64,000 bases of DNA from an uncultured bacterium (GCA_963701025.1 OY969557.1:640090-704089); one strand, 5' to 3'; shown: positions 29,780-64,000, counted from the first letter of the stretch. Made by a program: numbers and translations. The notes: generated by a model not told the origin, from the sequence alone.

Positions 29780-30100
29780 TTAGAGTGTGACATAGGGTAA
29801 TTCGTACAAATGAGTGTGCAAATATCTTCCTGGAGATTCTGCGTGAATGAAATCTTCATAGGCATGGAGGCTAGTATCCTCGTACATAATTGTTGATCCG
29901 CTCAGGAATTTTACCACAATTCCTTTTGATCCATTGTTATAGGCGTAACCTACCGATTCTATCCATGACGATGAAACCCCTGTTAAATCGTATAACATCG
30001 TGAAGCCCCCATCTGCGGACCCCCGATCGTGAGAAGATTTTCTCTCCACTCCCTCAAATAACTCTTTGTACCAGTCTGGTTCAGATTCGTCAAACGCCAT
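29780..30100 (-). CDS. KTSC domain-containing protein
   Basis: SSWIESVGYAYNNGSKGIVVKFLSGSTIMYEDTSLHAYEDFIHAESPGRYLHTHL matches the KTSC domain (S..I.SVGYD.....L.V.F.SG..Y.Y..VP...Y..F..A.S.G.YFN..I). Confidence 0.7.
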   Translation of the reverse strand: MAFDESEPDWYKELFEGVERKSSHDRGSADGGFTMLYDLTGVSSSWIESVGYAYNNGSKGIVVKFLSGSTIMYEDTSLHAYEDFIHAESPGRYLHTHLYELPYVTL

Positions 30101-30629
30101 AACTTATGTATAGCATTTAGACCCACGCTGTTCAAGCGGATTACTCAACTTTAGATAATCTCAAAATCGCCCAAACAATAAAAGTACATACCACCAAAAC
30201 TCCTAATGTAACATTTAATTGGCTTTGATGTATGAATTCGATTTGAGAGTTGTTTGACAACCATCCACCATCTCGGGCAATTTCCCCTTTAGTTTGTTGT
30301 GCAAAGAATGTATACATGCCGTAAAATTGTAAAGCAATAATCGGCAACCAATCAATTTTGTAAAATTTCATCGCTGATTTCTCCTAGTTTGGAAAGGCAG
30401 AATTAGTAAAACTAATATCCAGAGAAATAATCCGACCGCGAACTCCAAATACTTCATAAATCCTTTTTATTTTGGCAATATATCAGAACTAACAATGCAA
30501 TTATTATGATTAGAAGTAGGTGCATGGATCATCCTGTAATTTTGAAAGATATATTCCCTATCGCATCGACTACAAACAAATTTGGCGACACAATTAATGG
30601 CATCGTACATGGTCGTCATCAATCGATGA

Positions 30630-30866
30630 TTATACGCTGGACAATTTTTTGGTAGGAAACTTTGATTTAAAGCCATCATATTCACATATCTTGTATCGTA
30701 AGAGGTAACGGACATATTCACTCAGACTATCATATCCTTGAGATTTCGCAATCTTTTTAAGTCGTTCAATTTCGGCTTTCTCCATCCAAGTTACCAGCCC
30801 TCTTGTTGATTCTTTATGCATGTATTTCCTTTCTTTTTTCGACAAATTGTATGATGCAACCACCAT
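30630..30866 (-). CDS. possible ribbon-helix-helix (CopG/Arc-like) small protein
   Basis: EIERLKKIAKSQGYDSLSEYVRYLL resembles the RHH pattern. Overlaps a neighbouring small ORF, so uncertain. Confidence 0.3.
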   Translation of the reverse strand: MVVASYNLSKKERKYMHKESTRGLVTWMEKAEIERLKKIAKSQGYDSLSEYVRYLLRYKICEYDGFKSKFPTKKLSSV

Positions 30867-31040
30867 CGATTCTTGTAAATTTTATTAGCATATCTCGACG
30901 ATAGGCTGCTGTTCTGCGTTGCCCTAAATTGGGAGGTGCTGGATTTATAGTCAATTCCTTTGAGCAGTTTCCAACAGCTTCCATTGGCCCAATCATTCCA
31001 AGGATATTTTTTGGTAGATCGAACTTCAAAATCCACCTGC

Positions 31041-31826
31041 TTAATTATTTCCGCCATTTTCTTCTCCGCTCATTATTTGTTTGATTTCTTGTAATTGCTT
31101 ACGAAGATTTTTCTTGCCTCTTACTTTATGGGCTGCCCGAAGTTTATCTCTCAGATAACACCCGCAAGATTTAGTTTCACCACACACTAGTCTCGCTCCT
31201 TCCACAACTTTTACTGTCCCACAGTCGCATAGACATTTCCAGAATGTCGTGTTATGCTTATTTTTATGGGAGAAATCTATTACAACATATCGATTATATC
31301 TTTGCCCAATCTCTATCCTCGGGTTTAAGCAACCGCAAGATTTTTGCCCATTCGTAAGATGCGATCCTCTCACCGTTTTATAGCTCCCACAATCGCATAA
31401 GCACAGCCAAAAACAATTGCTCCTATTATCTTTATGGGAGAAACTTATTACAACCAGCATCTCGAATCTTTGCCCAACCAAATCAGATCGACGAATAGAA
31501 TGCTTTCTATTTAATTTTTTACATTCTTTACTCCCACAGGTTTTGGTGTAACTTCTTTTTGATTTCGGGTGTAGAGCATTTTGAAGTGCCTCAGTTCTGA
31601 CCTCCACAAGTTTTCCGCAATCACAAAGACACCAATGCCAAGATTTTTTCTTGCCGCGATGATCTATCATAATAAATCGCCCAAGAATTTCCAACGCCCC
31701 AATCTTCTGGCCTGTTAAGTATACACTCATGCCACCTTCTTCAGCACTCAAATCGGGATTTTCTATTTTAGATTTGATATTTTTTGTGATTTCCCCAAAC
31801 AACTCATCGATCAGTTCGGTGTTCAT
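31041..31826 (-). CDS. phage-associated protein with three tandem zinc-ribbon modules (W.C.CDCG...V.....L..G...SCGC)
   Basis: Three repeats: WHWCLCDCGKLVEV, FWLCLCDCGSYKTV, FWKCLCDCGTVKVV, each followed by SCGC/KSCGC. Same module as in 50298..50789. Confidence 0.55.
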   Translation of the reverse strand: MNTELIDELFGEITKNIKSKIENPDLSAEEGGMSVYLTGQKIGALEILGRFIMIDHRGKKKSWHWCLCDCGKLVEVRTEALQNALHPKSKRSYTKTCGSKECKKLNRKHSIRRSDLVGQRFEMLVVISFSHKDNRSNCFWLCLCDCGSYKTVRGSHLTNGQKSCGCLNPRIEIGQRYNRYVVIDFSHKNKHNTTFWKCLCDCGTVKVVEGARLVCGETKSCGCYLRDKLRAAHKVRGKKNLRKQLQEIKQIMSGEENGGNN

Positions 31827-32125
31827 TCTTCTAATTCCTTTAGTTGTTTCTTTAACATCTTTTTCTTGAACAAGTTGTAAGTTTTACTTTTTTCTACATC
31901 TTCTTTTACGAGTTTGAGCCACTCTTCCCTATTCCGTACTTCACAAACATTCCTAATCGCCCGTTCAATTTGTCCTTTTGTCGCTGGCCCGAAAATCTGC
32001 GTTAATTGTTGGACGCTCCTACCAGCCAAAAATTGAGCAGCAATTACGCTGTCTTGTGACCAAACTTGTTCAGCGGTCATTATGCCTCTCCTTCGCATTG
32101 ACGTTCTAGGAACCGATGTCGCCAT
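31823..32125 (-). CDS. hypothetical protein (phage early region)
   Basis: 100 aa ORF overlapping the next gene by 4 nt, so coupled. Confidence 0.4.
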   Translation of the reverse strand: MATSVPRTSMRRRGIMTAEQVWSQDSVIAAQFLAGRSVQQLTQIFGPATKGQIERAIRNVCEVRNREEWLKLVKEDVEKSKTYNLFKKKMLKKQLKELEE

Positions 32126-32410
32126 CTCTACTTGCCAATTTCATTTGGCTCCTCTTTCACATAATTCAACATTATAACCTTCCACTTGAATTGCCTTAAT
32201 TCCCATCGGGCTTAATCTTTGAGAAATTTCACCATCTATCCACTCGCAAGTCGATATAAAAAGATCGCACTCTTTTTTACTTTTAAACATCACGACCTTG
32301 CTTTCTTCAAAGATTACTAATCCTCTGGTCGGATGAAAAACAACCCACGGGTGGTGGAGCATTTGACAATAATCATCCCAGTCTGCGTCATTCATTTTAC
32401 TTAACATAAC

Positions 32411-32786
32411 TCACTCTCCAATAAAATCAAGATAAAATCGGCCATTATTTGGATTAAAACTGATTCGCACCATCCTACCCTCAACTTCAACGTCAGCCCA
32501 CACACTGCCGAAGCCACCGATCAGAAATGTTGGCACCTCTAACGCTATTGGTATCGAGGCTGTCCCTGCTCCACGCACTTCACGCTTCGGCGATGCCACG
32601 CGAGCGGCCCGAAAAATCTTGATCGTTTCGTCCTTATGATCGCCCCAAAAATCCAAATCGTTTTCATGAATATTGACTAATGGCGGATCATTTTCATCTA
32701 CTCCCGCTTCAATGCAAGCCCTTACGGCCCGTAATGCGGCTTTAACTTGCTTTTCCAACTTAAACGCGATTTCTGAGGTAATGAAC
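32411..32786 (-). CDS. hypothetical protein; start moved to Met after promoter/leader
   Basis: The conserved leader GAAACG x4 ...CUCAAACCGGAGAAGCC precedes ATG (cat at 32784-32786). The N-terminal 37 aa of ORF 32411..32899 cover promoter and leader sequence, so they are discounted. Confidence 0.45.
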
Positions 32787-32835
32787 ATGGCTTCTCCGGT
32801 TTGAGTTTCGTTTCCGTTTCCGTTTCCGTTTCTAC

Positions 32836-32864
32836 ATTGTAGCATAGGGGAATACCCTTGTCTA
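32836..32864 (-). promoter_or_regulatory. minus-strand sigma70-like promoter with extended -10 (TGCTACAAT) and upstream CCACCCGAAATGGG element
   Basis: Reverse complement reads TAGACA, 17 nt spacer, TGCTACAAT. Upstream is ACCACCCGAAATGGGGATAG. Closely similar units occur at 33353-33400, 44409-44438 and 44897-44925. Confidence 0.5.
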
Positions 32865-34758
32865 TCCCCATTTCGGGTGGTTTCCAAAGATTTTTCCAAA
32901 TGGCCCTTCCGTGGGCCATGATTCGATCCGTCGCATTCCTCTACTTCTTTAGGCCAAGTTCATACTTCCCAACGACCGCAGGCAACTCATCCCAGCGATC
33001 CCAAGCGTCGGCTACTAGGTCTAGCAACTCATGGATTTTTCGTTTGCCATTTTCGGTCGTATCTCCATAAGTTGCGATCATCTTCGCCAATTCTAAAACA
33101 TGGCGACGATAATAAGTAGCCACACAATCCGTCATGTTCTTCAAGCCACGCGGACAACGCCGGATCACTCTGCAACGTCCTAGAAAATTTCTCGTCGTAC
33201 ATACCACATCTCCAAATTGTGAAAGAACTGAACGAACGGAAATGGGTGATCCCCAAATCCTCTATTACATAGTACGCAGGAATTTCCGTTTGTATAGGCG
33301 AAATCTCGAAAGATTTCGGAAATTTCTTTCCCGGTATTCCCCACGACTTCTTATATCATAGCATAAGGTGATCACCATGTATATACCCATTTCGGGTGGT
33401 GCGTAAAGATTTTTTAGAAAGGGTGATCCCTGATATTGAGACTCAGTATCAATAAGAAATAATGTTGACTAAGTTGATAATCTTACTAATGATTAAAGAA
33501 AATTTTCAGGGCCACCTGAAAGATGGATAGACATAGGTGTTCCCTTGTGTTAAAATAAAAGAAGAAAATTTATGGCCCTATATTTTTTATTTTTAAGGAT
33601 TTTGAAATGGCCAAGTCTAAAATTTGTTGCTGGTGTAAAAAGCCTATTATTGATGATAATTTTATTAAAGCGACTCACAATTACCATCTAAAATGCCGAG
33701 AAACTCAACAACGCAGAGCGGCAATGGGCCATAAAAAATGCCCAACAATAAATCGATCGATTCCAGGCGGGGAAGGTAGGAGAGTGCTTCATTCAAATAA
33801 ATCTATTCAATGATCAAGGTAATGGTTGATCGTGAGGCCATTCTTCTGTACATAACGCCGCGATCTTCGACCTGAGTTTTTCGACCATCATTATACGCCC
33901 AGCTTCAGTCAAATTTTTGTACGACGGATCAATTTGCTCGGAGAGTATCACAATTGATGTGGCTAATAGGGTGCCAAGCACATCGCAGATAAATAGTGGC
34001 CCTGTTTTCTTGTCCCCCAAATCGTGCTCTATGAGTGGGAAAATCGCATCGGATAAAGCGATCCTTCTTTTCTCCCAATTCTCTGGGGATATGCTCATTC
34101 CGATTGAATCTCTATTTCGAGCGTGAGTTCATCGAGGAGCAGACCTAATTCCTTCGCAGAAATATCGAGTTCCCGACAAATCGCGGATTTCTTTATCCTT
34201 CCTTTCGCGGTACAAGCGACTCCTGGCTCCATATAGATAAAATCTAGGAGCCGAGAATATTTACCATCGTGGAGCAAATGTAAATACTTAATTAAATCAT
34301 TGTTTATTGTTTGCGAGAGAAAATTAGTGGCCATAACTTAATTTAGTTATAACGACATTTATTTCTTCAATCCCAGAAATCCTTTTTCAATTCCATTACT
34401 TGGGGTTTATCATCGGTAAAATAATCAGGAAGACTAATGTCATAAAACACATCGTCCAATTGACAAAACCAACAAATCTCTCCATCCGTTTGATGTCCGA
34501 TTTCGTCGGTACATCGTTCACAAAATCTAATATTCATTCGTCACCTCATCCATATAATTTAATCTGAATTCCAAAACTTTAATATAAGACAAAACGGAAG
34601 AACACAATTCCATCCATTCATCGTCATCTCGATTACAAGAAATTTTCTTAAAAGCGTCCTCGGATCGCAATCTAAAATCCTCGTTCGCCGCGTCCAACAA
34701 ATCTTTAACCGGAATCAATTCCAATAACTCGTCTACGTGTTTAATTATCTCACTCATT

Positions 34759-36042
34759 TTATTCTCCTAAAAATTGTTTGTAATCTTCGTACCCGTCTTC
34801 TTTCCATATATCTTTGGAGGTATGTACCTCCATTGAAATTCTCATCCCCTCTCTGCCTAATATTTCTCGACTCGCAACCAGCATCTTCTCTTTGATCATT
34901 TCCTTTATTTTATCGATATTCGTTTCGTCACACAAGACATAGATTGCATCATGCAAAGGAAATATTATCTCTATTTTTTCCTTATGGATTAAATTTACCG
35001 CCTTCCGTAACATATCTTGAGCGGTTCCCTGAATTGGAAAATTTTGATAAGTATTAAGTTTTTTATCAGGCCAAAAAGCCCAACCCGATTTCAATAAAAT
35101 ACAATCGCCATTTTCATATTTTTCTTTGAGACGATTCCTGAAATCCCAATAATTAGTATAAAGTTCATGATGACAATTTCTCAATTCCGTAACTTGTTCT
35201 GAATCAATTCCAAGATTAATCGCCGCTTTTTCTACACCCATACCATAACCAACTCCAAGTATAAATGCCTTACTTATTTTTCTTGGAATTTTTAACCCTG
35301 TCTGTTTTGTAAAAGCCTCATACACATCTCCCGTTAAATATGCCTCGATCATATTATCATCTTTTGACATACAAGCAGCAACAAAAAATTCTTGCGTAGA
35401 ATAATCTGCTGAAATAATAGCCTTCCCTGGTTCAGCCCTAATTAACGCTCTTAACCATTTACTTTGGGCTGGAATGAAAGTTTTTGTTGGTGGAGCATTT
35501 CTGGATGTGAGTGTCCCAAATGCATTAAAATAACAACGAATTCTATCGTCTTTCCCTACTGCTTTATCGAATTCTTTTTTAGACGCCGGGCTATAGGCGG
35601 CCATTTCTCTTTTTAGTTTCTTTGTTGTTCTAAAAAGCTCAATTTCCCGTAGATTTTCATAATCTTTTAATACTTTATCTTCTGTTGAATATTTTCCTCC
35701 TTTTGTAAGTGGCCAAGTATCTTGTAAATTCTTACTACAAACAAATTGATTAAATAAGTAATCCTTTTTCTGATACTCTGGTTGGATTCCTAATTCTTTT
35801 TCTACTTTTGTTTGTTTTTTCAATTCATAAAATTTATAAACTTTGTTGCATTCTTCTATTGAATGTCTTGTCACTCTCTCAAAATTATTTGATAGATTCT
35901 GGATTGCTTTTCGATCAATCGGAATTCCTACCGACTCAATCTTCGCTAAATCTACACACCATTGTCCACGATTATGCTGAAATTGTTTTATGTTGCGAGG
36001 ATTTTCTGGACGATATAGGAGTTCTTCGAGAGCATTTGTCAT
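34759..36042 (-). CDS. family A DNA polymerase, polymerase (palm/fingers) domain
   Basis: Motif A ISADYSTQEF (DYSQIELR-like), motif B RKISKAFILGVGYGMG (R...K...F...YG), motif C PLHDAIYV (HDE-like). Confidence 0.8.
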   Translation of the reverse strand: MTNALEELLYRPENPRNIKQFQHNRGQWCVDLAKIESVGIPIDRKAIQNLSNNFERVTRHSIEECNKVYKFYELKKQTKVEKELGIQPEYQKKDYLFNQFVCSKNLQDTWPLTKGGKYSTEDKVLKDYENLREIELFRTTKKLKREMAAYSPASKKEFDKAVGKDDRIRCYFNAFGTLTSRNAPPTKTFIPAQSKWLRALIRAEPGKAIISADYSTQEFFVAACMSKDDNMIEAYLTGDVYEAFTKQTGLKIPRKISKAFILGVGYGMGVEKAAINLGIDSEQVTELRNCHHELYTNYWDFRNRLKEKYENGDCILLKSGWAFWPDKKLNTYQNFPIQGTAQDMLRKAVNLIHKEKIEIIFPLHDAIYVLCDETNIDKIKEMIKEKMLVASREILGREGMRISMEVHTSKDIWKEDGYEDYKQFLGE

Positions 36043-36108
36043 TTCTGATACAAAGCGGGAAGGTAATGAATATCAGACATACAATATTTTATAATGTCTA
36101 CTTGCTCT

Positions 36109-36537
36109 TTATCTGTATATTCTTTTTTTGTCCTGTAATATCAAAGCACGCATCTCGTCTTTTAGGTGGGGATCAGAGTCAACGCCAAGGAACTTCAATT
36201 TTGCATTGATGAGCTTGCATTGCGTTCTACCATAATCTACTTTTATTAATGTATCATCCTCTAATGAAACATATTCAGGTTCATCATATTTGGAATAATA
36301 TTTTTTCTTCCATTTTTCTGTTTTTTTATCTTGATGCCATTGCCAGCCATATTTCCAATCAGTTTCATTCACCAATTGTCTGAATTCAGCGTGAAGGTCA
36401 ATCCATTCATATTTATCTGGGTCAATTCCTAACGAAAGAAAGCATCTGATTTCCGCAATTACTGCATAGCCTACACAGGTTTCTCCCTCTAATGCTTGCA
36501 TTCGTTTTTTGAATGCATCTAGGGATTGATCTAACAA
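36109..36537 (-). CDS. putative N-terminal segment of the family A DNA polymerase (same frame, separated by two stops)
   Basis: 142 aa ORF in the same reading frame as 34759..36042. Separated from it by TAA at 36109-36111 and TGA at 36073-36075, which are 12 codons apart. Confidence 0.35.
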   Translation of the reverse strand: MLDQSLDAFKKRMQALEGETCVGYAVIAEIRCFLSLGIDPDKYEWIDLHAEFRQLVNETDWKYGWQWHQDKKTEKWKKKYYSKYDEPEYVSLEDDTLIKVDYGRTQCKLINAKLKFLGVDSDPHLKDEMRALILQDKKRIYR

Positions 36538-37236
36538 CCAATAATTTTCTATTGGTTGATCTTCAACCTAAGGGAGCAACAAAATACCCTTTGTTGCCGT
36601 TCATTGCTTTGGGTAAATTCAAAGTCGAGGTAAATCATATTGTGAAATTATTATCCTTAATGTTGAGGTTGGATAGTGCCATGATTCGTGAGTAACTTTC
36701 CACTTCCATTTAAATTCTTCACATAATGTTTCAATCTCTATTAAATTCTTCTTCTGTAATATGATAAGGTTCAGTAACAAAATGTTGAACTCCATCTTGG
36801 GTAATGTGACCACAATGATCCATCCATTGACGATTACCACCCCTAAAAAGTTTTTTATATTTACTCTCAAACCATTTAGGAGTTTTATATTTGGTTTGTA
36901 GTTTCTTTTTTCTTTAACGGTTATCGGGCTTTATTGACTTCCTGATTCTCGTATCTTACAAGAAATTTATCCCCCGGTTTCCCACATACTGGTTCCCATT
37001 TACCACCAATATCTTTTTGCTTACCTTCTAAAATTTCTCTAACTTCTTTTGATAATGATTCTATCATTTAATTCTCCAGTGTTTCAAAATTACTTTTTTG
37101 GATTGCTTTTTTACAAATCAAATAAACTCCACCATCACTGTCACATAATTTTTTCTCCTTTAATTTGTCATGGAAATTAGAAATATTTAAGTAGATATTT
37201 TTCATACCCATTGTTCACACACCATTTCATATTTTT

Positions 37237-38110
37237 TTAGATTTTATTAACATCACTGGCTGCTTGCTGCCTGCCATAATTTTCATAACCAATCCATAAT
37301 TCAAAAGTCCCTTTGGCTCTATACCCTTCTTGAATTTCCTCTTTTGTTTCCCATAAAGGATGATCTACCGTCATTGGCACATTATCCTCTTGATTGATAG
37401 ATTGCCATAAATCAAGAAAAGGGAAATCATAAATTTCACGAGTTAAATACTTTGTACTTACCGCCCCAATCATCTCATATTCCCACATTCTGCGTTGCCC
37501 TGTTTGATCTGGGGCAATAACATAAATGTGTTGGTTGCTAGTGAAGAGCAAAAGAGAAAATTTTAGGAATCCTTTGGTATTGTTGCGTGAAAAATACACG
37601 ATTTGCAAATTCTCTACATTGCGTAATATTTTTGAATTGGTTCATTTGGGCACCATTCAAACTTGCTTGCTCTTTGCCACCCGGTTCGCTGATAATCAAA
37701 ACATAATTGGTAGAACCAAAAACAAAAAATTGATCTTTGAACATATCTTCAAAATTCATTTCAGCCGTATAGCCATAGAGTGGCCCTTCTATCTCACATT
37801 TATCGTAATAGTGAGGGCCGCCGCGTGTCAGTAAAGAGGCAATTGTATCTTTGCCAGTTCCTTGCGATCCTTTGAAATTGATAAACATATCATAAAAAGT
37901 TGGCAATTGATAAACAGATTTTTTTGTATTCGTCATCCAATGTTGCAAAATGATTTTATTAATCTCGCTTGGTTCAATGTGAGCCAACTCAAAAAAATTA
38001 TGAGATAAATCATCAAACTTATACTTTTTATTATACTGTAATTTTTCCTGCAATTCGTTGAGTTTTTCAAATTTGTTATCCAAACATACAGCCTCAAACA
38101 TATCCACCAA
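37237..38110 (-). pseudogene. P-loop NTPase, D5/SF3-helicase-like (putative primase-helicase), split between two frames
   Basis: ORF 37538..38110 has Walker A FKGSQGTGKDT and a Walker-B-like YVLIISEPGG. ORF 37237..37608 continues in another frame, overlapping 37538-37608. Confidence 0.45.
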
Positions 38111-38612: not shown

Positions 38613-40699
38613 CAGCGATTACGATTTAGTTGTCACGTTGGCAAAACAAAGATTAACATAAATCAAAAGTGGAAGCAAGAGAAATATAGAAAAATAATGA
38701 AAAATATTTTTGAGGTGTACAACTAAAAAGTTATTAACTGAATTTTTAGAGGGTAAAAAAAGGGCCTTTTTTTTGCTTTAACTCTTTATGTGGAAATACT
38801 TTATATCAAAAAATAAGGCAAAAATCCCATTTCTTAGTATATACTTTATGATCTAGGACTACACTAGTTAGTAGTTGATTTGACTCCAAGGTTGGTCTAT
38901 AGAATTCTAAAAAAGGAAGAGCGATATTTGTAATCTGCCCATCTTAACATTTTGACTATAATATAAATTATTCTGCATTTTACCAGAATTTTTTGATATA
39001 ACCTTCGATTATACAAGTTAAGTCAATTTTGACTTCCTAACTTTTTTACTAAGGACTTTTATTTATGGCTAGTTTAGAGTATGAAGCGTTAAATCTCGAA
39101 GAATGCGTGGTGCCAAAGAGGGCTATCCTATAGCAAAAACGAAGATCGACCAGAAATTTATGTTAAATTGCCCCCGAACGGCGGTTATGCGCCGGCAACG
39201 TCTAAAATTTAACCCTAAAGTTCCGAACACCTCGTTCTATGCTTGGACGCGATTGCATTATTTGAGCAGTGGCGATAAGCAATTTGCGGTACATTGCCCT
39301 AAAGACAGACCTGATGCCCGTACAGGAGCATTGGCAGTTGGTGATTGGAGAATCCTGATAATATTACAATAAGTTGTGGCAGGACAGCCTGAAAGTCGAA
39401 GGTAAGGCTCGGGACGATATACAAGGTTTGGCAAGACGATTAAAACCTGATCCAGCGAATATTATTACAACACGAAGGTCATTGAATCCTACGACTAGAA
39501 ACAAGGTAAACTAGAGGTTCCCCAAAACGCTCTGATTTTATCCGTAGGCCTGCAATTGCATAGTAAAATCCAACTTAATATCTCGGGGACGCAGACTCTG
39601 GATTTGAGGGATTTGGAGACATTACTAATTTGGAATCCGGTCGTAATTTCAAGATTATCAAAAGATGGTCAAGGGAAACGGAAAGCAGTTTCCGAATTAC
39701 GATCAGTCTGTTTTCCTCGAACCGTCCCCTTGCGAAGATTGCGTGCCGTACCTCGAAACGCGGCACGATCTTACCACGATTAGAGCTTTGAAATCCGAGG
39801 ACGATCTTGAACTGGCATTAAAACGTCATTTGGGTCTACTCACCGATGATTCGGAATTCGATTTTCTACAAAACTAAAAAATTGGATCAGGTTCTTTCCA
39901 ATTTTAAACCCCTATTGGCTCCTTAGATTGTTTCTATTGAGCCACAGGGTTTATATTATTTTATATTTAAACAATACCATTTATTAGGATTTAATCATGT
40001 CAGAAGAAATTAGTCTCAAGAGTCAATGGGGAGAAACAAATTATACTGTCCATTGCAAATTTATAACTCCATGTTTGGGCACGTCGCCCGAAAACCAAGC
40101 GATCTGGAGGAACTATGTTGCGACCAAGTGGAGCAAAGAACTGAAGAAGGAGGGTCTTTCCGAAGAGGAAATATCCGCAAAACTGGACGCGGAGCAGTTG
40201 GAGGTCGCGGATTACACCGACGATGCCACAGGTAAGACGGTATTCCTCAAGGACGATATAGGATATTATATTAAAGCGTATATGGTTCGCGGGTTCCTAC
40301 GAAATTGGCCGCTACTATGAAGCAATTTGGGGCGATGAACCAACTGAAATCGGTCGTAAGTAAGTATTTGTTTGTGTATGGGGTTGAGGACTCCACAAAA
40401 ATTTATCTCGCTGGAGCAGATGCGAAATTGGAGATTTGTGAACGTCCGTTACGAGCGTCCACACCTCAAGGGGAACGAACCTCAATTTCTCACGGAAGAA
40501 ATCCCTCCAGAGACCAAATTTTCATTTAAAATTAAGACTCTCCACTATCAAATCCCAACGAATACGATTGTTAAGTTGTTGCAATACGGAGAATTAGTAG
40601 GATTAGGGTGTTGGAGAAATTCCGGGAGATGGTAGGTTCGTCGTAACGAAATTGATTAAGGAAGATTAAGTGAATGTGTCCCCATGACACGCAACGTAG

Positions 40700-41123: not shown

Positions 41124-41165
41124 CGTAGATTAAAGTTTTATTCCTTAATCTACGGGATTTTTTAT
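41122..41165 (+). terminator. Rho-independent terminator (plus strand)
   Basis: CCCGTAGATTAAAG-loop-CTTAATCTACGGG followed by ATTTTTTATT. Confidence 0.6.
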
Positions 41166-41600: not shown

Positions 41601-41699
41601 TGGTTTGTCTTTTGTTGGTATTTCTTTCATAACTATATTATACTATGCTTTTCTAATTGGAATAAGAAGATTTATTGTTGCTCGCTAAATACGAACCGC

Positions 41700-53520: not shown

Positions 53521-53594
53521 TTTAACGAAGGCGAGAGCCTGAGATAAAAATAAAAAAAGGAATTTAACGAGCCTCACGGCTCAACGGAAGTAAA
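53521..53594 (+). promoter_or_regulatory. duplicated about 75-nt leader, copy 1 (upstream of DUF2190 gene)
   Basis: TTTAACGAAGGCGAGAGCCTGAGATAAAAATAAAAAAAGGAATTTAACGAGCCTCACGGCTCAACGGAAGTAAA-ATG. About 93% identical to 54015-54091. The GAGCC-loop-GGCTC hairpin lies just 5' of the RBS. Confidence 0.5.
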
Positions 53595-54014: not shown

Positions 54015-54091
54015 TTTTAACGAAGGCGAGAGCCTGAGATAAAAAATAAAAAAAAGGAATTTAACGAGCCTTACGGCTCAACGGAAGTAAG
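54015..54091 (+). promoter_or_regulatory. duplicated about 75-nt leader, copy 2 (upstream of major capsid gene)
   Basis: Near-identical to 53521-53594, including hairpin GAGCCTTACGGCTC and RBS GGAAGTAAG-ATG. Confidence 0.5.
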
Positions 54092-55206
54092 ATGCCAGTT
54101 TTTAATCCAGTCAATTATCCGAGTCAGGGTACTGTATACGTTCCAGCTGCAGACCAAAATCTGCGGAGCAACTATTCCAGAAACCCGAACAGCTACGCTG
54201 TGAATCGCGTTGCGACAATTAACAATGTTGCTAAAGAGCAATTTAAGTATCTTGCTTTCGATCCGGGTGCTGCATCTCGAATTCCTTTGTCGAGTGATTC
54301 TCATCTGGATAGCCGTCTTTACGCTTGGAATGCCAATGCTGATCCGGTTAAAAACTTCTCCAAGAAACAATCTTTCCAGCCAGCAATGACTCAACGCTAC
54401 GGTGTTGAATTTATTATTGATCAGTTGACGATTGATCAAGCAGAGTGGCCGATCATCGCCGATCATGCGACAGACGGTGCAAACGTGCTGATGACAAATC
54501 GTACCCTTAATGCTTATACCACGCTTGGTAATTCCGCCAACTGGGTTGATTTCGGTAATAACAGTATTAATAACGCAACTGCAACCAGCCTCGGTGGGGG
54601 TTATTTCTCTGCTGGTACTAACACTAACCCGTACTTGCAACTTGGTTTGTCGGCTGCTGTGCGTTCGATTGAACGAGGCACTAACGCGGTTGGCAATGCA
54701 AATATTATCGTCGCCTTAATGTCCCCCACCGTAGCGATGGGTATTGCCCCCTCCGCAGAGTATAGAGGGTATTTGGCCAACAGTGTTTACGCTTTGCCTT
54801 ATCTTAATGAGGCACTCAAGTCTGATGCTCTTGGGATGAATAATTTAACGAATCAGGCATTTCGTTACGGTTTGGGACCAAATGTACGGCATCGACGTGG
54901 TTGTGGACCCAACAGTGGTTAATTTAAGCTTCTGAAGGACAACCAAATGATTTTGTTTATCTTTGGGATGCGGTTGCTCCGAATAGCATGGTTTTAATGT
55001 CTCGTCCAGGCACACTTGAAGCACCTCTCAACACGATGAGTTGCTTGACGAACGGACTTTATGCCGACTTGACAACCGTGATTGAAGCAAAACCTTTGTA
55101 TCAGAGAACGAATGGCGTGATCTCTGACAACTATGTATACATCCTACGTCCCCAGTTGGGTTATCTCATCACCTCCGTATTAAGCTCGTTTAATCCGGCT
55201 AACTAA
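54092..55206 (+). CDS. major capsid protein (lambda gpE-like family suspected), interrupted by frame changes near 54900-54990
   Basis: ORF 54092..54922 (276 aa) plus ORF 54988..55206 (72 aa) in a different frame. An intermediate frame reads YGIDVVVDPTVV. Position after scaffold and DUF2190 genes. Confidence 0.55.
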
Positions 55207-55229: not shown

Positions 55230-55754
55230 TTAAAGATCAAGCCTCTTTGAATGAAGAGGCTTTTTTATTGCTTCTTCAAAAGAATAACCATAAACAAAAA
55301 TACGATTACGAAGAGTGGTATATTTAATACCTAATCTTTTGGAAATCTCATATAGAGTTAATTCTTCTCCTTGAAAAGGATAAAGAATAATATTTCCTTT
55401 ATTCGTATTTTGAATTGAATATGAGGACCATCGTATATTTCCAGGAACATAATCTTCATTTGAATTTATTCGATCAAGAGTAGTTCCCTCGGGTTTCTGG
55501 CCAAGATTTTCTAAAATCCATTTTTCAAATTCTTTGAAATCGTTTATCCAATCCTCGAATACTTTTATTCCTTTCCCGCCATAGTAAGAATAAACTGAAT
55601 GATTAGGATTTAGACATCTCTGTTTCATTCCTATCCATGTGTTGTACAGCGGGGATTTCTTATTTCCGCCGTTTCTCCGTACTCTACCCTCAGTTCTACG
55701 AAGATATGCTTCGTGATGACTTAATTTATCTTTTTCTTTATCTTTGTATGGCAT
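55230..55754 (-). CDS. homing-endonuclease-like protein (YGGRGI motif plus HNH_3-like TLDRINSNEDYVPGNIRW)
   Basis: LYNTWIGMKQRCLNPNHSVYSYYGGKGIKVFEDW then GTTLDRINSNEDYVPGNIRWSS, which matches the SLDRIDNNGNYEPGNCRW signature. Starts MPYKDKEK. Confidence 0.55.
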   Translation of the reverse strand: MPYKDKEKDKLSHHEAYLRRTEGRVRRNGGNKKSPLYNTWIGMKQRCLNPNHSVYSYYGGKGIKVFEDWINDFKEFEKWILENLGQKPEGTTLDRINSNEDYVPGNIRWSSYSIQNTNKGNIILYPFQGEELTLYEISKRLGIKYTTLRNRIFVYGYSFEEAIKKPLHSKRLDL

Positions 55755-56188
55755 TTTGGTTTACCTTCTTCATTAAGTTCGATCTTTTCAAAATCATAAC
55801 ATAAAAGATCGCCCGCTTCTACCGACCTATGACAGATCGCACATAGAACGGTGCATTTGTTCAATTCTTGTATCAAATCTTTTCGAGAACGAAATCCAGA
55901 TGAGGCGAGAGCGAACGACTTTGCCATTGGATTAATATGATGACAATCCAGATGGTAGGGTTTCAATTCACCGCAATTACAATTAGGGTTCAAGCAACCA
56001 TATGATTCTTTTATAGATGCAATCCATGCTCTGGTCTTTTTCGCCCTTATTGATGACCGATTACTACGTTTTCTTCTAACTTCTGGGTTTTTACCGTATT
56101 CTTTCTGAAAAACCTTAATTTTTATTTTATGTTTCTCATAATATCGTTTGTTTGCGGGTTTTCTATCTTCTTTGTTTTTATAAGGCAT
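55721..56188 (-). CDS. HNH endonuclease
   Basis: CNCGELKPYHLDCHHINP...NKCTVLCAICH is the classic HNH Cys/His pattern. Starts MPYKNKED. Confidence 0.8.
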   Translation of the reverse strand: MPYKNKEDRKPANKRYYEKHKIKIKVFQKEYGKNPEVRRKRSNRSSIRAKKTRAWIASIKESYGCLNPNCNCGELKPYHLDCHHINPMAKSFALASSGFRSRKDLIQELNKCTVLCAICHRSVEAGDLLCYDFEKIELNEEGKPKCHTKIKKKIN

Positions 56189-56388
56189 TCATTAGTGGAG
56201 TTAAGTCTGAATAGTTATTTTCCATTCTCCATCATAAAAAATCCTCTTTGACATTGTTCATCTTCTCTAGAAGACTTTGTGAAATGAAATCCCCTATAAT
56301 GATCTTTTATCTGGTAAAGACCTTTATATTCTGGAGTGTTTGTATCGTGAAAAAACATCATTCCTTTAGGTTTAATGACTCGTATGTG

Positions 56389-56766
56389 TTAATCAATAGA
56401 ATCTGTAAAATGATCTGCATCAGATATAAGGAAATCATATTGATAATCTCGGCAATGGGATAAGAAATTTTTTTCGTTTGAAGCTATTACTGATACACCT
56501 TCATTTTTTAATGTTTCTGCCCAATTAGGTTCACGCCCGCTGTAATCCCACCAATTATCTACACAAGTTAATTTACCGATCTTATTGTACTCAATACAAT
56601 GGATTGCAACGAATGTACAATATCCTGTACCTACGCCAAGTTCTAGGATATTCATTGGCTTATAAGACAATAATGTACCAGCAAGAAGGACACCGTGAGC
56701 AAGATCAACAGCGGTATTTCCATTCGGAGATACTTTTAGATAATCGAATAAATCATTCAATGGCAT
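56389..56766 (-). CDS. class I SAM-dependent methyltransferase (O-MTase family 3-like, small)
   Basis: Motif I ILELGVGTGYCT, acidic CVDNWWD. 125 aa. Sits between two HNH genes. Confidence 0.65.
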   Translation of the reverse strand: MPLNDLFDYLKVSPNGNTAVDLAHGVLLAGTLLSYKPMNILELGVGTGYCTFVAIHCIEYNKIGKLTCVDNWWDYSGREPNWAETLKNEGVSVIASNEKNFLSHCRDYQYDFLISDADHFTDSID

Positions 56767-57290
56767 ATTTTATGTATTGGGGAGCCATTTTGATCGAGGT
56801 TGCAGCGTTGTAATAAAGAACAATCTAAATCTTTATAAGTCGCCATTCTATGACAAAAACAACAAAGTATGCAGCATTTGTTTATTTCTCTTATTAGAAT
56901 TTCAATTTTTCGTGTCGAAACCTTTGATAGATTAAATTCTTTTTCTTTAGGGTTGATGTGATGAAAATCCAAACAATAATCTAAAACCTTTTCTTTGAAT
57001 TCACAATTTGGATTTTGACATCCATAATGAAGTTTAATAATTGAAAGGAATTCTTTTTGTTTCACCCTATTTCTTTTGCCTCTTCTACGCCCAACTTCTG
57101 GAGTTTTTGCGTGACACTTGCGATTTGCTTCTCGACATTTTTCGGCATTATCCTCTCGCCATTTTTTAAAATATCCCAGTCGTTGACGTTTATCATTGTA
57201 TTGTTTATCTCTTGCCCTATATTTCTCTATATTATGTTCTCTGTATCGCCTTTGGCATTCTCTACGTTTTTTGGGGTCTTTGTAAGGCAT
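56757..57290 (-). CDS. HNH endonuclease
   Basis: YGCQNPNCEF...LDFHHINP...NKCCILCCFCH. Starts MPYKDPKK, paralogous to 55721..56188. Confidence 0.8.
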   Translation of the reverse strand: MPYKDPKKRRECQRRYREHNIEKYRARDKQYNDKRQRLGYFKKWREDNAEKCREANRKCHAKTPEVGRRRGKRNRVKQKEFLSIIKLHYGCQNPNCEFKEKVLDYCLDFHHINPKEKEFNLSKVSTRKIEILIREINKCCILCCFCHRMATYKDLDCSLLQRCNLDQNGSPIHKICH

Positions 57291-58655
57291 TCTTCCATTT
57301 TACCCGAAGAATGATGTATAAGCAATACATAAGTTATGCCAAGTTATGCAACACCTGCGGATATGTTGAATTTCTACGATGTCAATACTGTTGGCCGATT
57401 GGTGAACAACACGGGCACGCCAGAATTCTCTCAACTACTCACAGACCCCAATCTGGCAGCGATTTATCTTCTTCCTCTGGCACAGTTCTTTCTTATTGTT
57501 TACGAGGAGGAATATATTCCGACGCTCAATTGCAAGCATTGACTGATATAAGTCAAGAATGGTTGAAACAATTAGTTTGCGATATTGCTATCTGGAGGTG
57601 CGTGTTACGTCGCGGGTTGCCCATCAGTGAGTATCCACAATGCCAACTTGCTCTACAATCTCTCGCTGCTCTTGCCGCAGGTCAGCAATTGTTTAATGTT
57701 GCAACGGTAATAGAAGCAGGAAATATGGTCATGATCCAGTTGTTACAATTGGGCAAATATTGAGCCAAAATTATACCAGGAATCGTATTTACTTTCTTCC
57801 TCAGCAAACTGGTGCCCAACAGCAATGGGGCGGAGCCACAAATACAGGTGCGGGAAACTAAATATAACAGAAAATCAAAACAAGGAAATAAATGAGTCTT
57901 TACGAACAATCCAGCGTGGCTACGATAGTTAATGGCACAGCCCTCTTAATGGTTGCTCAAACGCAATTAGGTGGTGGCTACCCAGGAGATTTTGCGAGTG
58001 GTTCTCCAACTGGTGATACTTATACGATTCTTGGAGTAACTTCTGCGGACGGAGTAAAACTCCATCGCATGACACATCTCAAGACCAATTTTTACGGATC
58101 CTCGTGGCCCTGCGGTCGAAGATCAACGAATTAATTTGGGAGTCGATGGATTTCTTGAGTTTGATTTATTTCAGTATGACCAAGATACTTTATGGACCTA
58201 CATCGAACAAGGTGCCGCATCTCTGGACTCAGCCGGTAATCCAACAGGTTTTGGTGTGAATATCGGAAATTTAATGTACGATAATTACAATCTTCAAAAT
58301 GCGTCCAATCTAACCAGTTGCCTGTGGGTAGGTGCCCCTAAAAATCTATATGATCGTGGACGACTTTCCTTTATTTTCCCGAGGACATTCGTAGAAAACG
58401 ATCAGAACATAGGCTCTCCATTGGGGATAATTTGTCAGTGCATATGCGAATTCATTTCAATCCCGATGCTAGTGGCTTCGCTTACTATAGATTCCCAATT
58501 AATGAGTTTAACGCTCCAACAATTAACACAGAAATTACTGTGAATATTGATACGTTTGCGTATAGTACCGACCCATCGTAGAAAATTATTACTCTATTAA
58601 TTCATGGCTGAATTCTTTGAATATGAGGTAGAGGGCATTTAGAAAAGTTGACGCG

Positions 58656-59321: not shown

Positions 59322-60803
59322 TTGAATAACTTATTGCAGAGGATCAGCCCGACATCGAGCGGAACGGCTGGTGTCAAAGGTGGCTCTACTCAAAATCCTA
59401 TAAGTCTTGTTACGGACTTCGCCAACAAATTTGGTGGCCCGATCACTAAAACATTTGCCAAAATCATTACAGATTTACAACGAACATTCGAGGGCATTGC
59501 CAAAAATTTTGTTCCAAATATGACAAAAGGGGCGAGCAATAGTTTTGCTAAAAATCTTGTTGCCGATCTTACAGGTGGAGCGATAATGGCAAAAGTAATA
59601 AAAGGTAGAGAAGGTGGTCGAAAAGGGAGTTTAAAAGATATTTATAGTGAAATTTTTAAAGCAAAAGATTCATCAAAAGGAACAAAAGATTATTTATCTA
59701 ATCTTTTTAAAGCAAAAGAGCGGCCCAAGACTTATGCAGATGCTTTACAAAAAAGTATTTTTGATAGGCACACAGAGTTGACGTACAAAAGAATGCATAA
59801 ATTTGATTACCTAAGAAATAATGTTGGCAAGATTGGTAAATTCGCCTCAATGGGATTTGATCGAGCAAAGGATTTTTTACGTCCAGGTTTTGGAGCGGCT
59901 AATTCACTACTCGGGAAAGCGGGGTATGGATTGAAGGAGTTTGGGAAATTCTTTTATCAAGGACTTGAGCCAATCCCAGAAGAATCAAAAAATTTATTTC
60001 AACATTTTCGTAAACAAATTGGCCCTGTATGGAAATTTGGACAGCAAGGATTGAATGTCGCAAAAGGTTCAGTATCTCGAATGTTTGGCGGGGGCGGAGG
60101 TAGTGAGGCAGCGACAGAAGTAGCAGGCGGAGCAGGAGGAGGAATTGGAAGCGGAATTGGAGCGGCCGCAGGGGCAGGAGGAGGTGGAATTGGGGGTGGA
60201 GGTGGAGCCGCCGCAGGGGCAGGTGGAGGTGGAATCTTTGGGTTTGTCACTGCCCATCCAGTTGCAACGGCTACAGTGGCTGTTATTGCCACCTTTGCGG
60301 GACTTGTTAAAGTTGGACAAATGCTTATCGAGAGTCAAAGAAAAATTGCTGGGCTAAACGGGCAAACTGCTGCGGCTTTTGCTCAATATGACATACGAAC
60401 ATTACAAAGAAATATAATTTCGGCTGGGGCAACCTCTTCGACTACATCGGGCTTATTGGATGCAATGACCGATCTTCAAGATGAATTAAGACCTATTAAA
60501 GATGGAATAAATAATGTGGTAAATGTCTTGGAGATTGGTGTATTGAAATTACTAGAAGGAATTTTGAAAGGTATTAATTTCTTGACTTTGGGTAGTATCA
60601 GTGAGGAAGACCGCACTAGAAAGGTAGATTGGCTTAATAATCCTTTTGAAAGACCGTTTAAATTTTATGATCCTCGATCCAGTGGATTACAATGGCAGAC
60701 TACACCTCAAGGTACTGGATTTAGTGGATATAGAAGTAATGGCATAGGACCTCATGGCCCTCTTGGAGGATTTTTATTAATCTCATCTGGATTAAGAGTA
60801 TAG
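59322..60803 (+). CDS. tail tape-measure-like protein (Gly-rich segment plus hydrophobic helix)
   Basis: GGGGSEAATEVAGGAGGGIGSGIGAAAGAGGGGIGGGGGAAAGAGGGG followed by FGFVTAHPVATATVAVIATFAGL. Position fits, but at 493 aa it is shorter than usual. Confidence 0.5.
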   Translation: MNNLLQRISPTSSGTAGVKGGSTQNPISLVTDFANKFGGPITKTFAKIITDLQRTFEGIAKNFVPNMTKGASNSFAKNLVADLTGGAIMAKVIKGREGGRKGSLKDIYSEIFKAKDSSKGTKDYLSNLFKAKERPKTYADALQKSIFDRHTELTYKRMHKFDYLRNNVGKIGKFASMGFDRAKDFLRPGFGAANSLLGKAGYGLKEFGKFFYQGLEPIPEESKNLFQHFRKQIGPVWKFGQQGLNVAKGSVSRMFGGGGGSEAATEVAGGAGGGIGSGIGAAAGAGGGGIGGGGGAAAGAGGGGIFGFVTAHPVATATVAVIATFAGLVKVGQMLIESQRKIAGLNGQTAAAFAQYDIRTLQRNIISAGATSSTTSGLLDAMTDLQDELRPIKDGINNVVNVLEIGVLKLLEGILKGINFLTLGSISEEDRTRKVDWLNNPFERPFKFYDPRSSGLQWQTTPQGTGFSGYRSNGIGPHGPLGGFLLISSGLRV

Positions 60804-62764
60804 ATAGTATTATGGCATACCCAAGACAAAATTCAAACCAATATTATCCTTTTACCATTTACTATGGTGGAATCCAAATCCCTTATAATCAAAGTAATTT
60901 TTCTATGAACCAGTTTATGATGAGAATAATATAGATTTTGGACACAATCATATTACCATCACAGCGAATTGCATAATTAATCCAGAATTATTCTATACTC
61001 TTAATCCAGATGCTCTCTGGGGTAAACCAATGCAAGTGGGGCAGAATGATGGGACTTATGGTTGAGTAGTTCAAATCCATTAAATAATGCACAATATTTA
61101 CAAATTATAAACGATCTACTTAATCTTCCTAGACAAAGATTAATTTATACCGATGCAAAAGGTTTCCCAATTATCGATACTGGGGCAACCGATGAAAACA
61201 ATAGAAACCGATTGCAGAAATGGGCCGCTCGTAAAAGCTAATGCTTTTGAATTAGATGGATTAACAATAATTGCAAACATAAAAATTGAATGTTGGTTAA
61301 TCAAATGTTTATGCGGGTCTGATTATTCCGATGAAACTACAGAAACATCTCCTTCATTACTTTTGTCTAATCGTTGGTCTATGAAGCAAGATATTGACCA
61401 AGAAGGATTGAGTACCTATACGACAACTGGCTATATGATTTTTAGGACTGACATACAAAATATTTTTGGGTCTGATAATAAATTTCTCAATCCAATAGCA
61501 GGACAGGTCAGTTTAAATCCGGCTTTATTCAGAGGGCTGCCATCCCCTATAACATGGATTTACCCTAATTGTAACCGAATAGCCCAAAATTTTTCTGGAA
61601 GTCCTCAGAACGATGTTCCGATGCGACTGGCAAATTGTCGATAAAGAATTTTATCGTCCAGGAGTTAATGGTTTAACTACTTGGGACGGAACATGGGAAC
61701 AAAGTTGCAAGATAGTTGATGACGGGGGGAATGCTTCTGGTAGGGTCATAGGAGTATTCAGTGCCACAGGTAAAGGATCAACTGCAACATCTAAGCAAGA
61801 AATTTTTTCGACATTAATGACTTGCAGCCTTTTCTAGGATTACCCCCCAAGATATTTTAATGAATTGGAATGTTGTGGAAGGATTGAGAGACAATACAAT
61901 TCAAATTAAACTTCAAGTTCTGATGGTCCAAAGAACAGCAACCCCCGCATCGACATCTTCTTCTGCCAACGGGGCAACGGCGGGGGTAAATGCTGGGGCT
62001 GGTGGCTCAGTGATCACTGCCATCCAACAGCAATTTAAACCTGGACAAACTGCATTGTTTGATAATTTTAGATTAAGAATAATGGGACTTACTTCCTGAG
62101 ATGCTGGCAATCCACAAAATGCTTACGGGATTGGTGGTCAAGTATATCCTTTTGATTTGTCTCCACAATCAACTAATATTTCTTCCAACCCTACTCCTCA
62201 AAATAATTTGACAGTTGTTGGGCCATATAATAACCCGCATTATCGTTATACTAATATCCAAACAGTCAACAATATTCAAAATTTACCCCCTTTTGAAAGT
62301 AATGTACCCTTACTTTCTGTATTATTTGCTAATTACATCAATACTTCTCTAGCAAATAATTATTGTACTTCTAGTTCACAACAACCTGGGGCATCTCCAA
62401 TCAAATAAATACAAAAAATGGGGGAATTCAAGCCAATGCAGCCGCTATTCAAAATGCTTATCAGGCAACTTCCAATCAATATCCTGCTTACAATGTAGAT
62501 TCAGGAAGTGGGAGTAGTTCTACTAATTCTTCGCCTACAGGGAATGGGGGTGGTGCCCCAGTAGCACCTATTAATGTGGCAGGAATTATGCAATCAACTG
62601 CCCAAGCGATAGAAATAACATTTATCAAACTGGATTAGGGATAGCATCTGTAGCAATTGGTGTGTTCAACGCTATAAAGCAATTATTACCTATCGTAAGC
62701 ACTGATCTTTAGCCTCCAAGGTACACCGCGCACGATGTATGTGCATTACAAATTAGAATAGGAA

Positions 62765-63346
62765 ATGGTGGAGGACCACGGAATTCTTCAACTTCCTTTG
62801 ATGACAGATACTAATGGGGTTACTTGTGATTTTGTACAAGTAAGACAACCTGTAAGTAGAGTAAGAGTTTATTGGGAAGCGGCCCGAATGAATTATCCGC
62901 CCCAAGTTCCTGCCCCAGGAATTCCTCAAACCGCATATACCCAACTTGGAGGAAGAATCTTAATGCAGAATATAGAATTTATGCCTGATGGGCAAAATCG
63001 GGTGTTCTATATGAGTGGAGAATGGATATACGGAGTGAATTGCTATTTAAACCTCGGAAATAATCCTTTACAATTTCCGATGACTCCGTTAGATATTAAA
63101 GGTCTTAATGCTCCAAATAATAACACTAAAACAAGTCAAGCCCCAGGGGATAGTGCTCAAGGTGCTTTTATTGGTGAACTTTCCTGGTACAAATTTGTGG
63201 CAACCTTCAATTTGCACCCCGAATACAGGGACTGGTGGGCAATATGGGGGGAATTCGTCTTATGGATTAGGAAATGCGACATTAGCGGCTTTGTGGCCGA
63301 GCGGACCAATCACTTCAAATATTACCGCTGCACAAGCAAATCCTGA
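62765..63346 (+). CDS. hypothetical tail/baseplate-region protein
   Basis: 193 aa ORF in a region where neighbouring tail ORFs are fragmented (61153-62408). Confidence 0.3.
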   Translation: MVEDHGILQLPLMTDTNGVTCDFVQVRQPVSRVRVYWEAARMNYPPQVPAPGIPQTAYTQLGGRILMQNIEFMPDGQNRVFYMSGEWIYGVNCYLNLGNNPLQFPMTPLDIKGLNAPNNNTKTSQAPGDSAQGAFIGELSWYKFVATFNLHPEYRDWWAIWGEFVLWIRKCDISGFVAERTNHFKYYRCTSKS

Positions 63347-64000
63347 ATAAAAATATAAATGTTTTGGGGGTAAATCAAGGAAATGTGGTGGTTGCCCCAT
63401 CAGGTGTTGCCCAACAAAACGCAAATGGAACATTTACTTATACTCAAATACCATCCTTTGACGATTGATACATATAGTAAGGAAATAAATGATTAATTTT
63501 ACAAATTTATTCACAGGTTTAGGGCGTGTAGGATTTATGTTCAATTCCCAGAACGCCTACGCGGCTACCACTATTCCCACAAATACTGCAGCAATATTTT
63601 CTGATTTGTCTGGATACATTGCCCAACTTGGTACTCTTCAACAAGATTCAATCGCTTTACAAGGTTTTTCAAGATCATTCAATTCAAACGATATTCAACA
63701 AATTACCCAAAATGTGATCATACAGGTCGTGAATGCTGATGTCCCCCAAATCAATACGAGTTTATTTCCTGCTCTGGTAGAACTTATATCGCAAATGTCG
63801 GGAGATAGTCAAAGTATTCCATCAAATACGGTTTCTGCTTCTTATACCGCGAACGCAAACAACATTGGAACAGGACAAGTTGTAATCAGTTATAAAAATC
63901 AATTAGGTCAAGTTTATCAGATGCCATATGACGAGACGCTAACTCTCACCTGCACTTCTGATTCATATACTGGCGGTCAAACGGAGGGCAATGAATTATT

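Follow-up and report, generated by a model that had tools for sequence, protein, structure and literature searches.

A low-GC island of phage pseudogenes in an uncultured bacterium, very probably a decaying tailed-phage genome with a Mu-like head module

Cryptic prophages such as Rac, e14, DLP12 and Qin of Escherichia coli K-12 are vertically inherited, integrated remnants that produce no particles and are often situated next to tRNA genes; most of those in K-12 have been shortened by deletion, and they often retain an integrase and some expressed genes. In Patescibacteria (Paceibacteria), prophages of approximately 44 kb, some of them with a group-1 glycosyltransferase as cargo, have been kept as 'high-quality' by CheckV (PMC12455944). 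The DNA analyzed in this work, a stretch of 64,000 nucleotides from an uncultured bacterium (GCA_963701025.1, OY969557.1:640090-704089; hereafter the window), consisted of two parts, a host-like one from base 1 to approximately base 24,000 and a low-GC island from about 25.2 kb to the end of the window. This island, together with its continuation beyond 64 kb, is very probably a single integrated tailed-phage genome of at least 39 kb, which is defunct and decays as pseudogenes in the host chromosome.

The closest relative found, which served as the reference for genes lost or broken in the window, was the uncultivated phage contig logan:SRR16915460_1789480 (41.9 kb; L001/L082), with a portal protein 37% identical to that of the window and protein identity values of 27-47%. 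The gene order common to both comprised the terminase large subunit (TerL), a minus-strand group-1 glycosyltransferase, the portal (Portal_Mu), the scaffold, a head protein of about 126 amino acids (aa), the capsid, a gp36-like adaptor and the tail genes. Unlike the island, this relative has all its genes intact (TerL of 483 aa, capsid of 328 aa), and it bears its own TerS-like protein and a 193-aa tyrosine integrase next to TerL. It also differs in its replication genes, represented by an 827-aa D5_N/DUF5906 primase-helicase with no similarity to the replication module of the window, and in its GC content (50% vs. 39% in the island).

In order to locate lesions, homologous proteins were compared with the window DNA by tblastn and by a frameshift-aware dynamic-programming alignment. 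With respect to their intact homologs, at least eight genes of the island were broken by frameshifts and/or in-frame stops; the portal, the scaffold and a 129-aa head protein were full length and carried no lesions. The first-pass annotation of this stretch had described TerL as Walker A and nuclease-domain fragments, and the alignments against intact homologs confirmed that the gene is a pseudogene, with in-frame stops at 41904 (TAA), 42236 (TAA), 42280 (TAG), 42475 (TGA) and 42622 (TGA), and at least five frameshifts under a conservative penalty. The Walker B motif was mutated ('GYWVDEQ' of the homolog aligned to 'GMWLKEY' in the window, D173 and E174 being invariant in the family), and the last 70-140 residues, beyond about residue 390 of 460, were unrecognizable, while the Walker A motif (GGNGSGKD vs. 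GGTGSGKS of P0006) and the first nuclease aspartate ('VDFG') were kept. The family (PF03237, Terminase_6N type) carries the terminase large subunit annotation in cultured phages; identity was at most 25% to annotated terminases and at most 35% to IMG/VR relatives, the latter being used as a comparison set only. Alignment scans with TerL and the portal gave no match in genome contigs, and matched a single 3.4-kb contig among the metagenome contigs.

The earlier description had seen damage in TerL only. Instead, at least seven further genes were broken, namely those of a family A DNA polymerase (PolA), a helicase, the glycosyltransferase, the capsid, the adaptor and two tail proteins. The proposal that TerL could be supplied in trans was consequently removed, as capsid, adaptor, tail and polymerase would also need an outside supply, and the view of the element as a defective (cryptic) prophage gained stronger support than had originally been argued for it.

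Among these genes, that of PolA still has an open 427-aa polymerase-domain open reading frame (ORF) at 34759-36042. Its homologs are single proteins of 614-701 aa that aligned over 92% of the reconstruction, across two stops, TAA at 36109 and TGA at 36073; a shift near 36565, relative to PolA of the uncultivated contig logan:SRR18577680_9062 (L084), places the N-terminus in a different frame, and more stops were found upstream. The helicase remnant matched VapE-like_dom (E=3e-4) and DUF5906 (E=0.02) with scores that fell short of the Pfam cut-offs, and was distributed over two overlapping frames, ORF 37538-38110 containing the Walker A motif (GSQGTGKD) and ORF 37237-37608 a motif-C-like 'FTSNQ...RR', both motifs having been read by eye. 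N-terminal helicase debris probably reaches about 38.7 kb. The capsid gene, with no Pfam or PHROG match, was 53% identical to the full-length homolog P0070 over residues 3-369, an alignment that needs two 1-nt shifts (54878 and 54933) which do not compensate each other. The AF2 model of P0070 (pLDDT 90.4) matched many HK97-fold phage capsid structures in a Foldseek search of the PDB (probability 1.0), and the window gene is predicted, by way of this homolog, to encode the same fold. As for the adaptor, its assignment comes from the L001 homolog, which matched PF07030 and phrog_195.

The 427-aa PolA piece (P0027) and a 178-aa piece of the capsid (P0069; 54386-54922), at least, were found in public protein collections as independent entries, and the source annotation appears to carry no pseudogene flag on either gene. 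Flagging both fragments as pieces of pseudogenes would prevent mis-annotation.

The extent of decay was also reflected in ORF length. The mean longest stop-to-stop ORF per base was 183 aa in the island, against 288 aa in the host flank, 352-630 aa in three intact related contigs and 60 aa in the shuffled island. In the stretch between 38 and 48 kb, the mean longest covering ORF was 83-145 aa, close to the shuffled value. The GC content varied by gene as well: it was 36% in TerL, 34% in PolA and 34% in the helicase, and 44% in the portal, 48.5% in the 129-aa gene and 46% in the capsid gene, the intact head genes (41-48%) being the highest in the island, whereas in the intact relative it was uniform (49-54%). 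GC thus falls with damage, a pattern that would be produced by AT-biased mutation acting longest on the genes that were inactivated earliest. No context-specific deaminase signature was detected: there was no striking dinucleotide depletion, and degraded and intact parts were alike. The light damage to the capsid gene suggests that decay of the head module began later.

The composition of the island differed from that of the host flank both in GC (39.3% vs. 49.8%) and in dinucleotide signature (CC/GG 1.21 vs. 0.96; CG 0.97 vs. 1.22). Dinucleotide odds ratios were alike in its heavily degraded and intact parts, a single signature that fits a single foreign element. The first ~24 kb contained six tRNA genes (ARAGORN, Rfam) and long intact genes which, from their translations alone, we take to encode PilM/N/O-like proteins, a 608-aa TypA/BipA, L19 and a 788-aa ORF. 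Both the portal and the TypA protein of the window are recorded, as exact matches, on one 876,331-bp NCBI/ENA contig; the deposited assembly therefore joins the host part and the island within a small chromosome-sized contig. Since the lesions preclude viral propagation, the element must be inherited passively, that is, as integrated DNA, which also argues against a misjoined contig of a free phage. An ultra-small, Patescibacteria-type host may be supposed from the size of the contig (876 kb), with the gene content read as PilMNO as a further hint.

The gene classes listed in the first-pass annotation were all recovered in about the positions assigned to them (Pfam, PHROG, tblastn homologs). 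Its starting point for the phage-like region, 30.1 kb, was not upheld: the low-GC, pseudogene-rich island begins at approximately 25.2 kb, just past a tRNA-His and a Fic gene. As the island starts directly after these two genes, tRNA-His is a plausible candidate attachment site; a second copy of its 3' end (GTCCGATTCTCGCTAGTCACCCA) was not found within the window. The reported absence of an integrase and of a tRNA-derived att site held, in that no tRNA was detected by ARAGORN from 24.1 to 64 kb and the 193-aa integrase of L001 was not matched anywhere in the window by tblastn. For 30.1-39 kb, the six-frame Pfam scan (minus frames) gave PolA as its only match, with no domain of an integrase, recombinase or transposase; such domains were equally lacking from the ORF fragments (40 aa or longer, both strands) scanned between 38.6 and 41.75 kb and between 42.75 and 48.15 kb. 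Similarly, no credible domain of a lysogeny repressor or an excisionase was found among the small ORFs of the island. A putative, frameshifted serine recombinase at 11.2-12.4 kb lies 13 kb outside the island. The integrase of L001 sits just after TerL, and the same place in the window (42.9-45 kb) is occupied by a block of higher GC, composed of small minus-strand genes that copies of the early promoter drive; the integrase may have been lost, replaced, or situated past the end of the window.

When active, the phage would have expressed a minus-strand early and replication module, with small regulators driven by four extended -10 promoters, a VapE/D5-like helicase and a family A polymerase. 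The plus strand would have provided a Mu-like packaging and head module (TerL, portal, scaffold, 129-aa protein, HK97-fold capsid and gp36-like adaptor) together with a tail module, and the genome would also have carried cargo genes for sugar modification along with several homing endonucleases. As frameshifts or nonsense mutations are present in at least eight essential genes, the element would now be unable to replicate, package its DNA or build particles, and would be copied passively with the chromosome.

Several points weigh against this interpretation. The drift towards AT is a matter of inference, since it depends on the ancestral GC content of the phage. The analysis covered the assembled sequence only, in which a local misassembly or a poorly polished region may formally be present. 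The density of lesions was uneven, from 0 per kb over approximately 4.4 kb (portal, scaffold, 129-aa and tape-measure-like genes) to about 10 per kb in TerL, which uniform neutral decay does not predict; as a rough estimate, about 1.3 lesions per kb would give P~0.003 for none in 4.4 kb. Finally, the right end of the island lies beyond 64 kb, so that its right boundary, attR and a possible integrase there were unseen.

The doubt about the assembly corresponds to an alternative in which the lesions are sequencing or assembly errors in a functional prophage, or in a contig of phage origin that was fused with host DNA. Some features are compatible with it: the single 876-kb contig could derive from long reads, and seven consecutive T adjoin the glycosyltransferase frameshift near 48992. 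However, this was the only shift in such a context, those of the capsid and adaptor being outside long homopolymers, and many lesions were in-frame stops of the substitution type, of all three kinds. Moreover, TerL also lacks the Walker B aspartate and a recognizable C-terminus, nearby long genes were intact (portal, 1.4 kb; tape-measure-like gene, 1.5 kb; host TypA, 1.8 kb; a 2.4-kb host ORF), and GC tracked the damage. We regard errors of this kind as an unlikely source of the pattern.

The uneven density of lesions could instead reflect a partial domestication, the host keeping the portal, scaffold, 129-aa and tape-measure-like genes while the rest decays. These genes were lesion-free next to neighbors with 1-10 lesions per kb, and were the highest in GC within the island. 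Nevertheless, any particle-like product would need the broken genes of capsid, adaptor, terminase and tail, and to our knowledge no system or function relies on portal and scaffold alone. With only two indels and the above mentioned identity to its intact homolog, the capsid gene was damaged so lightly that a recent, stochastic decay of the head module fits the data, and retention by the host appears distinctly improbable.

A reassigned stop codon or programmed frameshifting, by which the genes would really be intact, is most improbable. Recoded phages are known, also in lineages related to ultra-small bacteria (PMC12455944), and TerL and PolA contain several in-frame TGA codons, yet TAA, TAG and TGA all occurred in-frame within single genes, and in no bin of 1 kb was a frame found that lacked just one type of stop; no single reassignment opened all the broken genes. 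In addition, numerous +1/+2 frameshifts accompanied the stops, the lack of tRNA genes in 24.1-64 kb leaves no suppressor tRNA there, and the intact genes were normal in code 11. Lastly, mobile introns, inteins or homing-endonuclease insertions that split genes restored by splicing are hardly credible, given that, in spite of the six or seven HNH/AP2-type genes in the island and the 2.1-kb HNH block between capsid and adaptor, the fragments of TerL, capsid, PolA and adaptor abut with shifts of 1-2 nt and nothing intervening, the HNH genes lie between genes and not within them, and Rfam, with no match other than tRNAs, detected no group I or II intron (gathering thresholds for the whole window; E<=1 for 38.5-48.2 kb).

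Coordinates of the features assigned to the island and its left border are summarized in the table.

Table. Features of the phage pseudogene island and its left border (positions in the window; pieces of a feature separated by commas)
Feature	Position	Strand	Evidence and remarks
tRNA-His(GTG)	23983-24054	+	ARAGORN, Rfam; last clearly host-type feature before the island
Fic gene	24229-25131		Pfam
Left arm of the low-GC island	25200-30100	.	GC drop, Pfam; glycosyltransferase fragments, HNH-AP2, epimerase, KTSC
Glycosyltransferase fragments	26373-26681, 28270-28563		Pfam
HNH-AP2 endonuclease	27663-28151		Pfam; 41% identical to the L085 HNH next to the closest capsid homolog
NAD-dependent epimerase	28808-29683		Pfam
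KTSC-domain protein	29780-30100		Pfam
Block of small early genes	30141-34757	-	Includes the HNH-family repeat protein (31041-31826) and the RHH-like gene
RHH-like ORF	30630-30866	-	RHH_1 E=0.07, weak
HNH-endonuclease-family repeat protein	31041-31826	-	phrog_374 E=1e-41
Promoter/leader repeat unit with extended -10 (TGCTACAAT)	32798-32895	-	Repeat families D5, D7, D13
Family A DNA polymerase pseudogene	34759-36650	-	PF00476 E=1e-25; phrog_17 E=4e-44
VapE/D5-like (SF3) helicase remnant	37237-38110	-	phrog_1313 'DNA helicase' E=1e-7
C-depleted, G/T-rich stretch	40650-41166	+	C 6-8%, G 30-33%; most C-depleted of the window; just upstream of the TerL remnant
HNH-AP2 homing-endonuclease remnant, two frames	41179-41528	-	tblastn with the L085 HNH
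TerL pseudogene	41692-42894	+	tblastn with 20 TerL homologs; frames 1, 3, 2, 1
Small genes, higher-GC block, shared ribosome-binding leader	43334-44544	-	Repeat family D9
SAM methyltransferase	48139-48594	-	Pfam
Group-1-type glycosyltransferase pseudogene	48581-49610	-	Pfam; L001 352-aa homolog in two frames; frameshift near 48992
HNH endonuclease	50298-50789	-	phrog_374 E=2e-42
Portal, Mu gp29 type, intact	50817-52244	+	PF06074 Portal_Mu; phrog_113; full-length alignment to P0003, no lesion
Acidic scaffold, intact	52328-53422	+	Homology to the L001 374-aa gene, no lesion
129-aa head protein, intact	53595-53984	+	phrog_673
HK97-fold major capsid gene (fold predicted), broken	54092-55206	+	331 homologs of 330-360 aa
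Inserted block: three HNH-type genes and a methyltransferase-like fragment (56389-56766), putative labels	55230-57290	-	Absent at the same place in L001
Mu gp36-like head-tail adaptor pseudogene	57336-57831	+	Frameshifts near 57463, 57723
Homolog of the L001 155-aa tail-module protein	57976-58543	+	Frameshifts near 58081, 58404; low-scoring alignment, moderate confidence
Tape-measure-like ORF, open 493-aa frame, Gly-rich repeat	59322-60803	+	L001 homolog with a weak phrog_1272 match
534-aa-type tail protein remnants	61080-63346	+	At least 5 ORF pieces, at least 3 frameshifts, 2 stops
Tail-fiber-like ORF, open	63489-64000	+	Runs off the window end

In the early module, the RHH-like gene is apparently split over two frames (30630-31057), as judged from overlapping ORFs in different frames. 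Small zinc-ribbon proteins had been proposed among the replication genes, a description that suited only in part: the large one (31041-31826) is a member of the HNH family (phrog_374), while a zinc-ribbon ORF near 44.3 kb was retained, with weak Pfam matches only. Further copies of the extended -10 element were found on the minus strand at 33352-33414, 44384-44431 and 44879-44918, and all four copies were picked up by a promoter scan with TG before the -10; the consensus of this promoter-like unit was TGnTAyAAT (e.g. TTCCCCTATGCTACAATG). Two of the copies have a common leader (GAAACGGAAACGAAACTCAAACC...), which over-long ORF calls read through as 'ETETKLKP'. The genuine starts probably lie at MFITSE (32.79 kb) and MATCSNCG (44.36 kb), and the zinc-ribbon protein of the higher-GC block would begin at 44364.

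The C-depleted stretch upstream of TerL contained approximately seven GTAARGT/GGTAAAGT motifs, some of them 21 nt apart, and its end is formed by a terminator with a strong hairpin and a T-run (41112-41166). It had no Rfam match, and nothing similar was found upstream of TerL in 13 relatives. A structured RNA was considered and rejected on the basis of this absence and of a fold z-score of only -1.8; the stretch may represent either an unstructured RNA or a repeat involved in packaging or replication.

With regard to the head and tail module, only three homologs of the portal were found among 5.8 billion clustered proteins, and neither the portal protein nor the DNA had a match among 50,697 phage records. 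The scaffold may include a protease part, as its L001 homolog has a weak protease match. A near-identical 77-nt leader (89-95% identity), containing a small GC hairpin and a ribosome-binding site, was present on the plus strand upstream of the 129-aa head gene (53521-53597) and of the capsid gene (54016-54094). Two apparent shifts in the tape-measure-like ORF (59949 and 60038), derived from a weak alignment to L001, were discounted as low-complexity artifacts. The terminal tail-fiber-like ORF had no match in scans of genome or metagenome contigs.

The island contained six or seven genes or remnants of HNH/AP2-type endonucleases (27663-28151, 31041-31826, 41179-41528, 50298-50789 and 55230-57290). 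The block at 55230-57290 separates the capsid and adaptor genes, which are adjacent in L001; its HNH labels are putative, by resemblance to the gene at 50298-50789, and the methyltransferase-like label comes from reading the sequence of the fragment. The glycosyltransferase fragments of the left arm were partial in terms of Pfam profiles (positions 79-157 of 273 for Mannosyl_trans3; 132-174 of 238 for Glyco_transf_34). The stretch between 45 and 48 kb had no family-level matches and looks frameshifted; a 55-nt segment is duplicated there with 89% identity, 441 nt apart (45669-45723 and 46110-46164, plus strand), within overlapping ORFs.

On the host side, a tandem duplication of 155 nt (99% identity) that includes a tRNA-Arg(CCG) was observed at 10495-10832 of the window. 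Directly next to it lie two minus-strand ORFs (11494-12387 and 11172-11576) that, by their translations, would represent a frameshifted large serine recombinase, and an IS200-like TnpA, also named from its translation, was found at 13069-13599. This looks like a separate small mobile element with an att-type duplication. Two inverted-repeat pairs were also detected, one of 196 nt with 96% identity (10828-11023 and 13910-14105) and another of 185 nt with 100% identity (14100-14284 and 23195-23379), the latter flanking an 8.9-kb segment of lower GC (14.3-23.2 kb). The middle copies of both pairs are contiguous (13910-14284), a layout suggestive of earlier inversions, or of an element of invertible or composite type.

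As an object, the element is an ordinary cryptic prophage, of a well-known kind; its lineage is poorly sampled, and the whole element is dead, not TerL alone. Its modest value includes the record of a lineage of phages for which there are essentially no cultured relatives. If it is indeed a fossil, at least 39 kb of pseudogenes would represent at least 4.4% of an 876-kb genome, and if the host is streamlined and ultra-small, the tolerance of approximately 40 kb of pseudogenes bears on the rate at which dead DNA is purged and on the hosting of temperate phages. A more elaborate scenario is doubtful, in which the element would be the fossil of a temperate, Mu-like-headed lineage of an ultra-small (Patescibacteria-type) host, with the lesion-free subset kept by selection and the GTAARGT repeat acting as a lineage-specific packaging or replication signal. 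A host within the Patescibacteria, even if true, would not make the element a new kind, as similar prophages have already been reported (PMC12455944).

Compared with known systems, the likeness to phage Mu was found in the head module (portal gp29, PF06074; gp36, PF07030, via the intact adaptor homolog). A Mu-like transposable phage was considered and rejected: no MuA/MuB-type transposase was found in the scanned frames, the resemblance to Mu was limited to head genes, and replication in the window is represented instead by PolA and a VapE/D5-like helicase. The adjacency of these two replication genes was found again in the contig L084, where a PolA of 665 aa (36% identical to that of the window by tblastn) directly follows a VapE-like/DUF5906 helicase; unlike PolA, the helicase of that contig had no detectable similarity to the window remnant, and its other genes were unrelated. 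With respect to the remnants in E. coli K-12, the island keeps nearly the whole gene order, but frameshifts and stops are scattered throughout its genes and no integrase is visible. The prophages of Patescibacteria, compared by their description only, are alike in size and in their glycosyltransferase cargo, and also in a host of small genome if the 876-kb contig represents a whole genome; the element of the window differs from them in being pseudogenized (PMC12455944).

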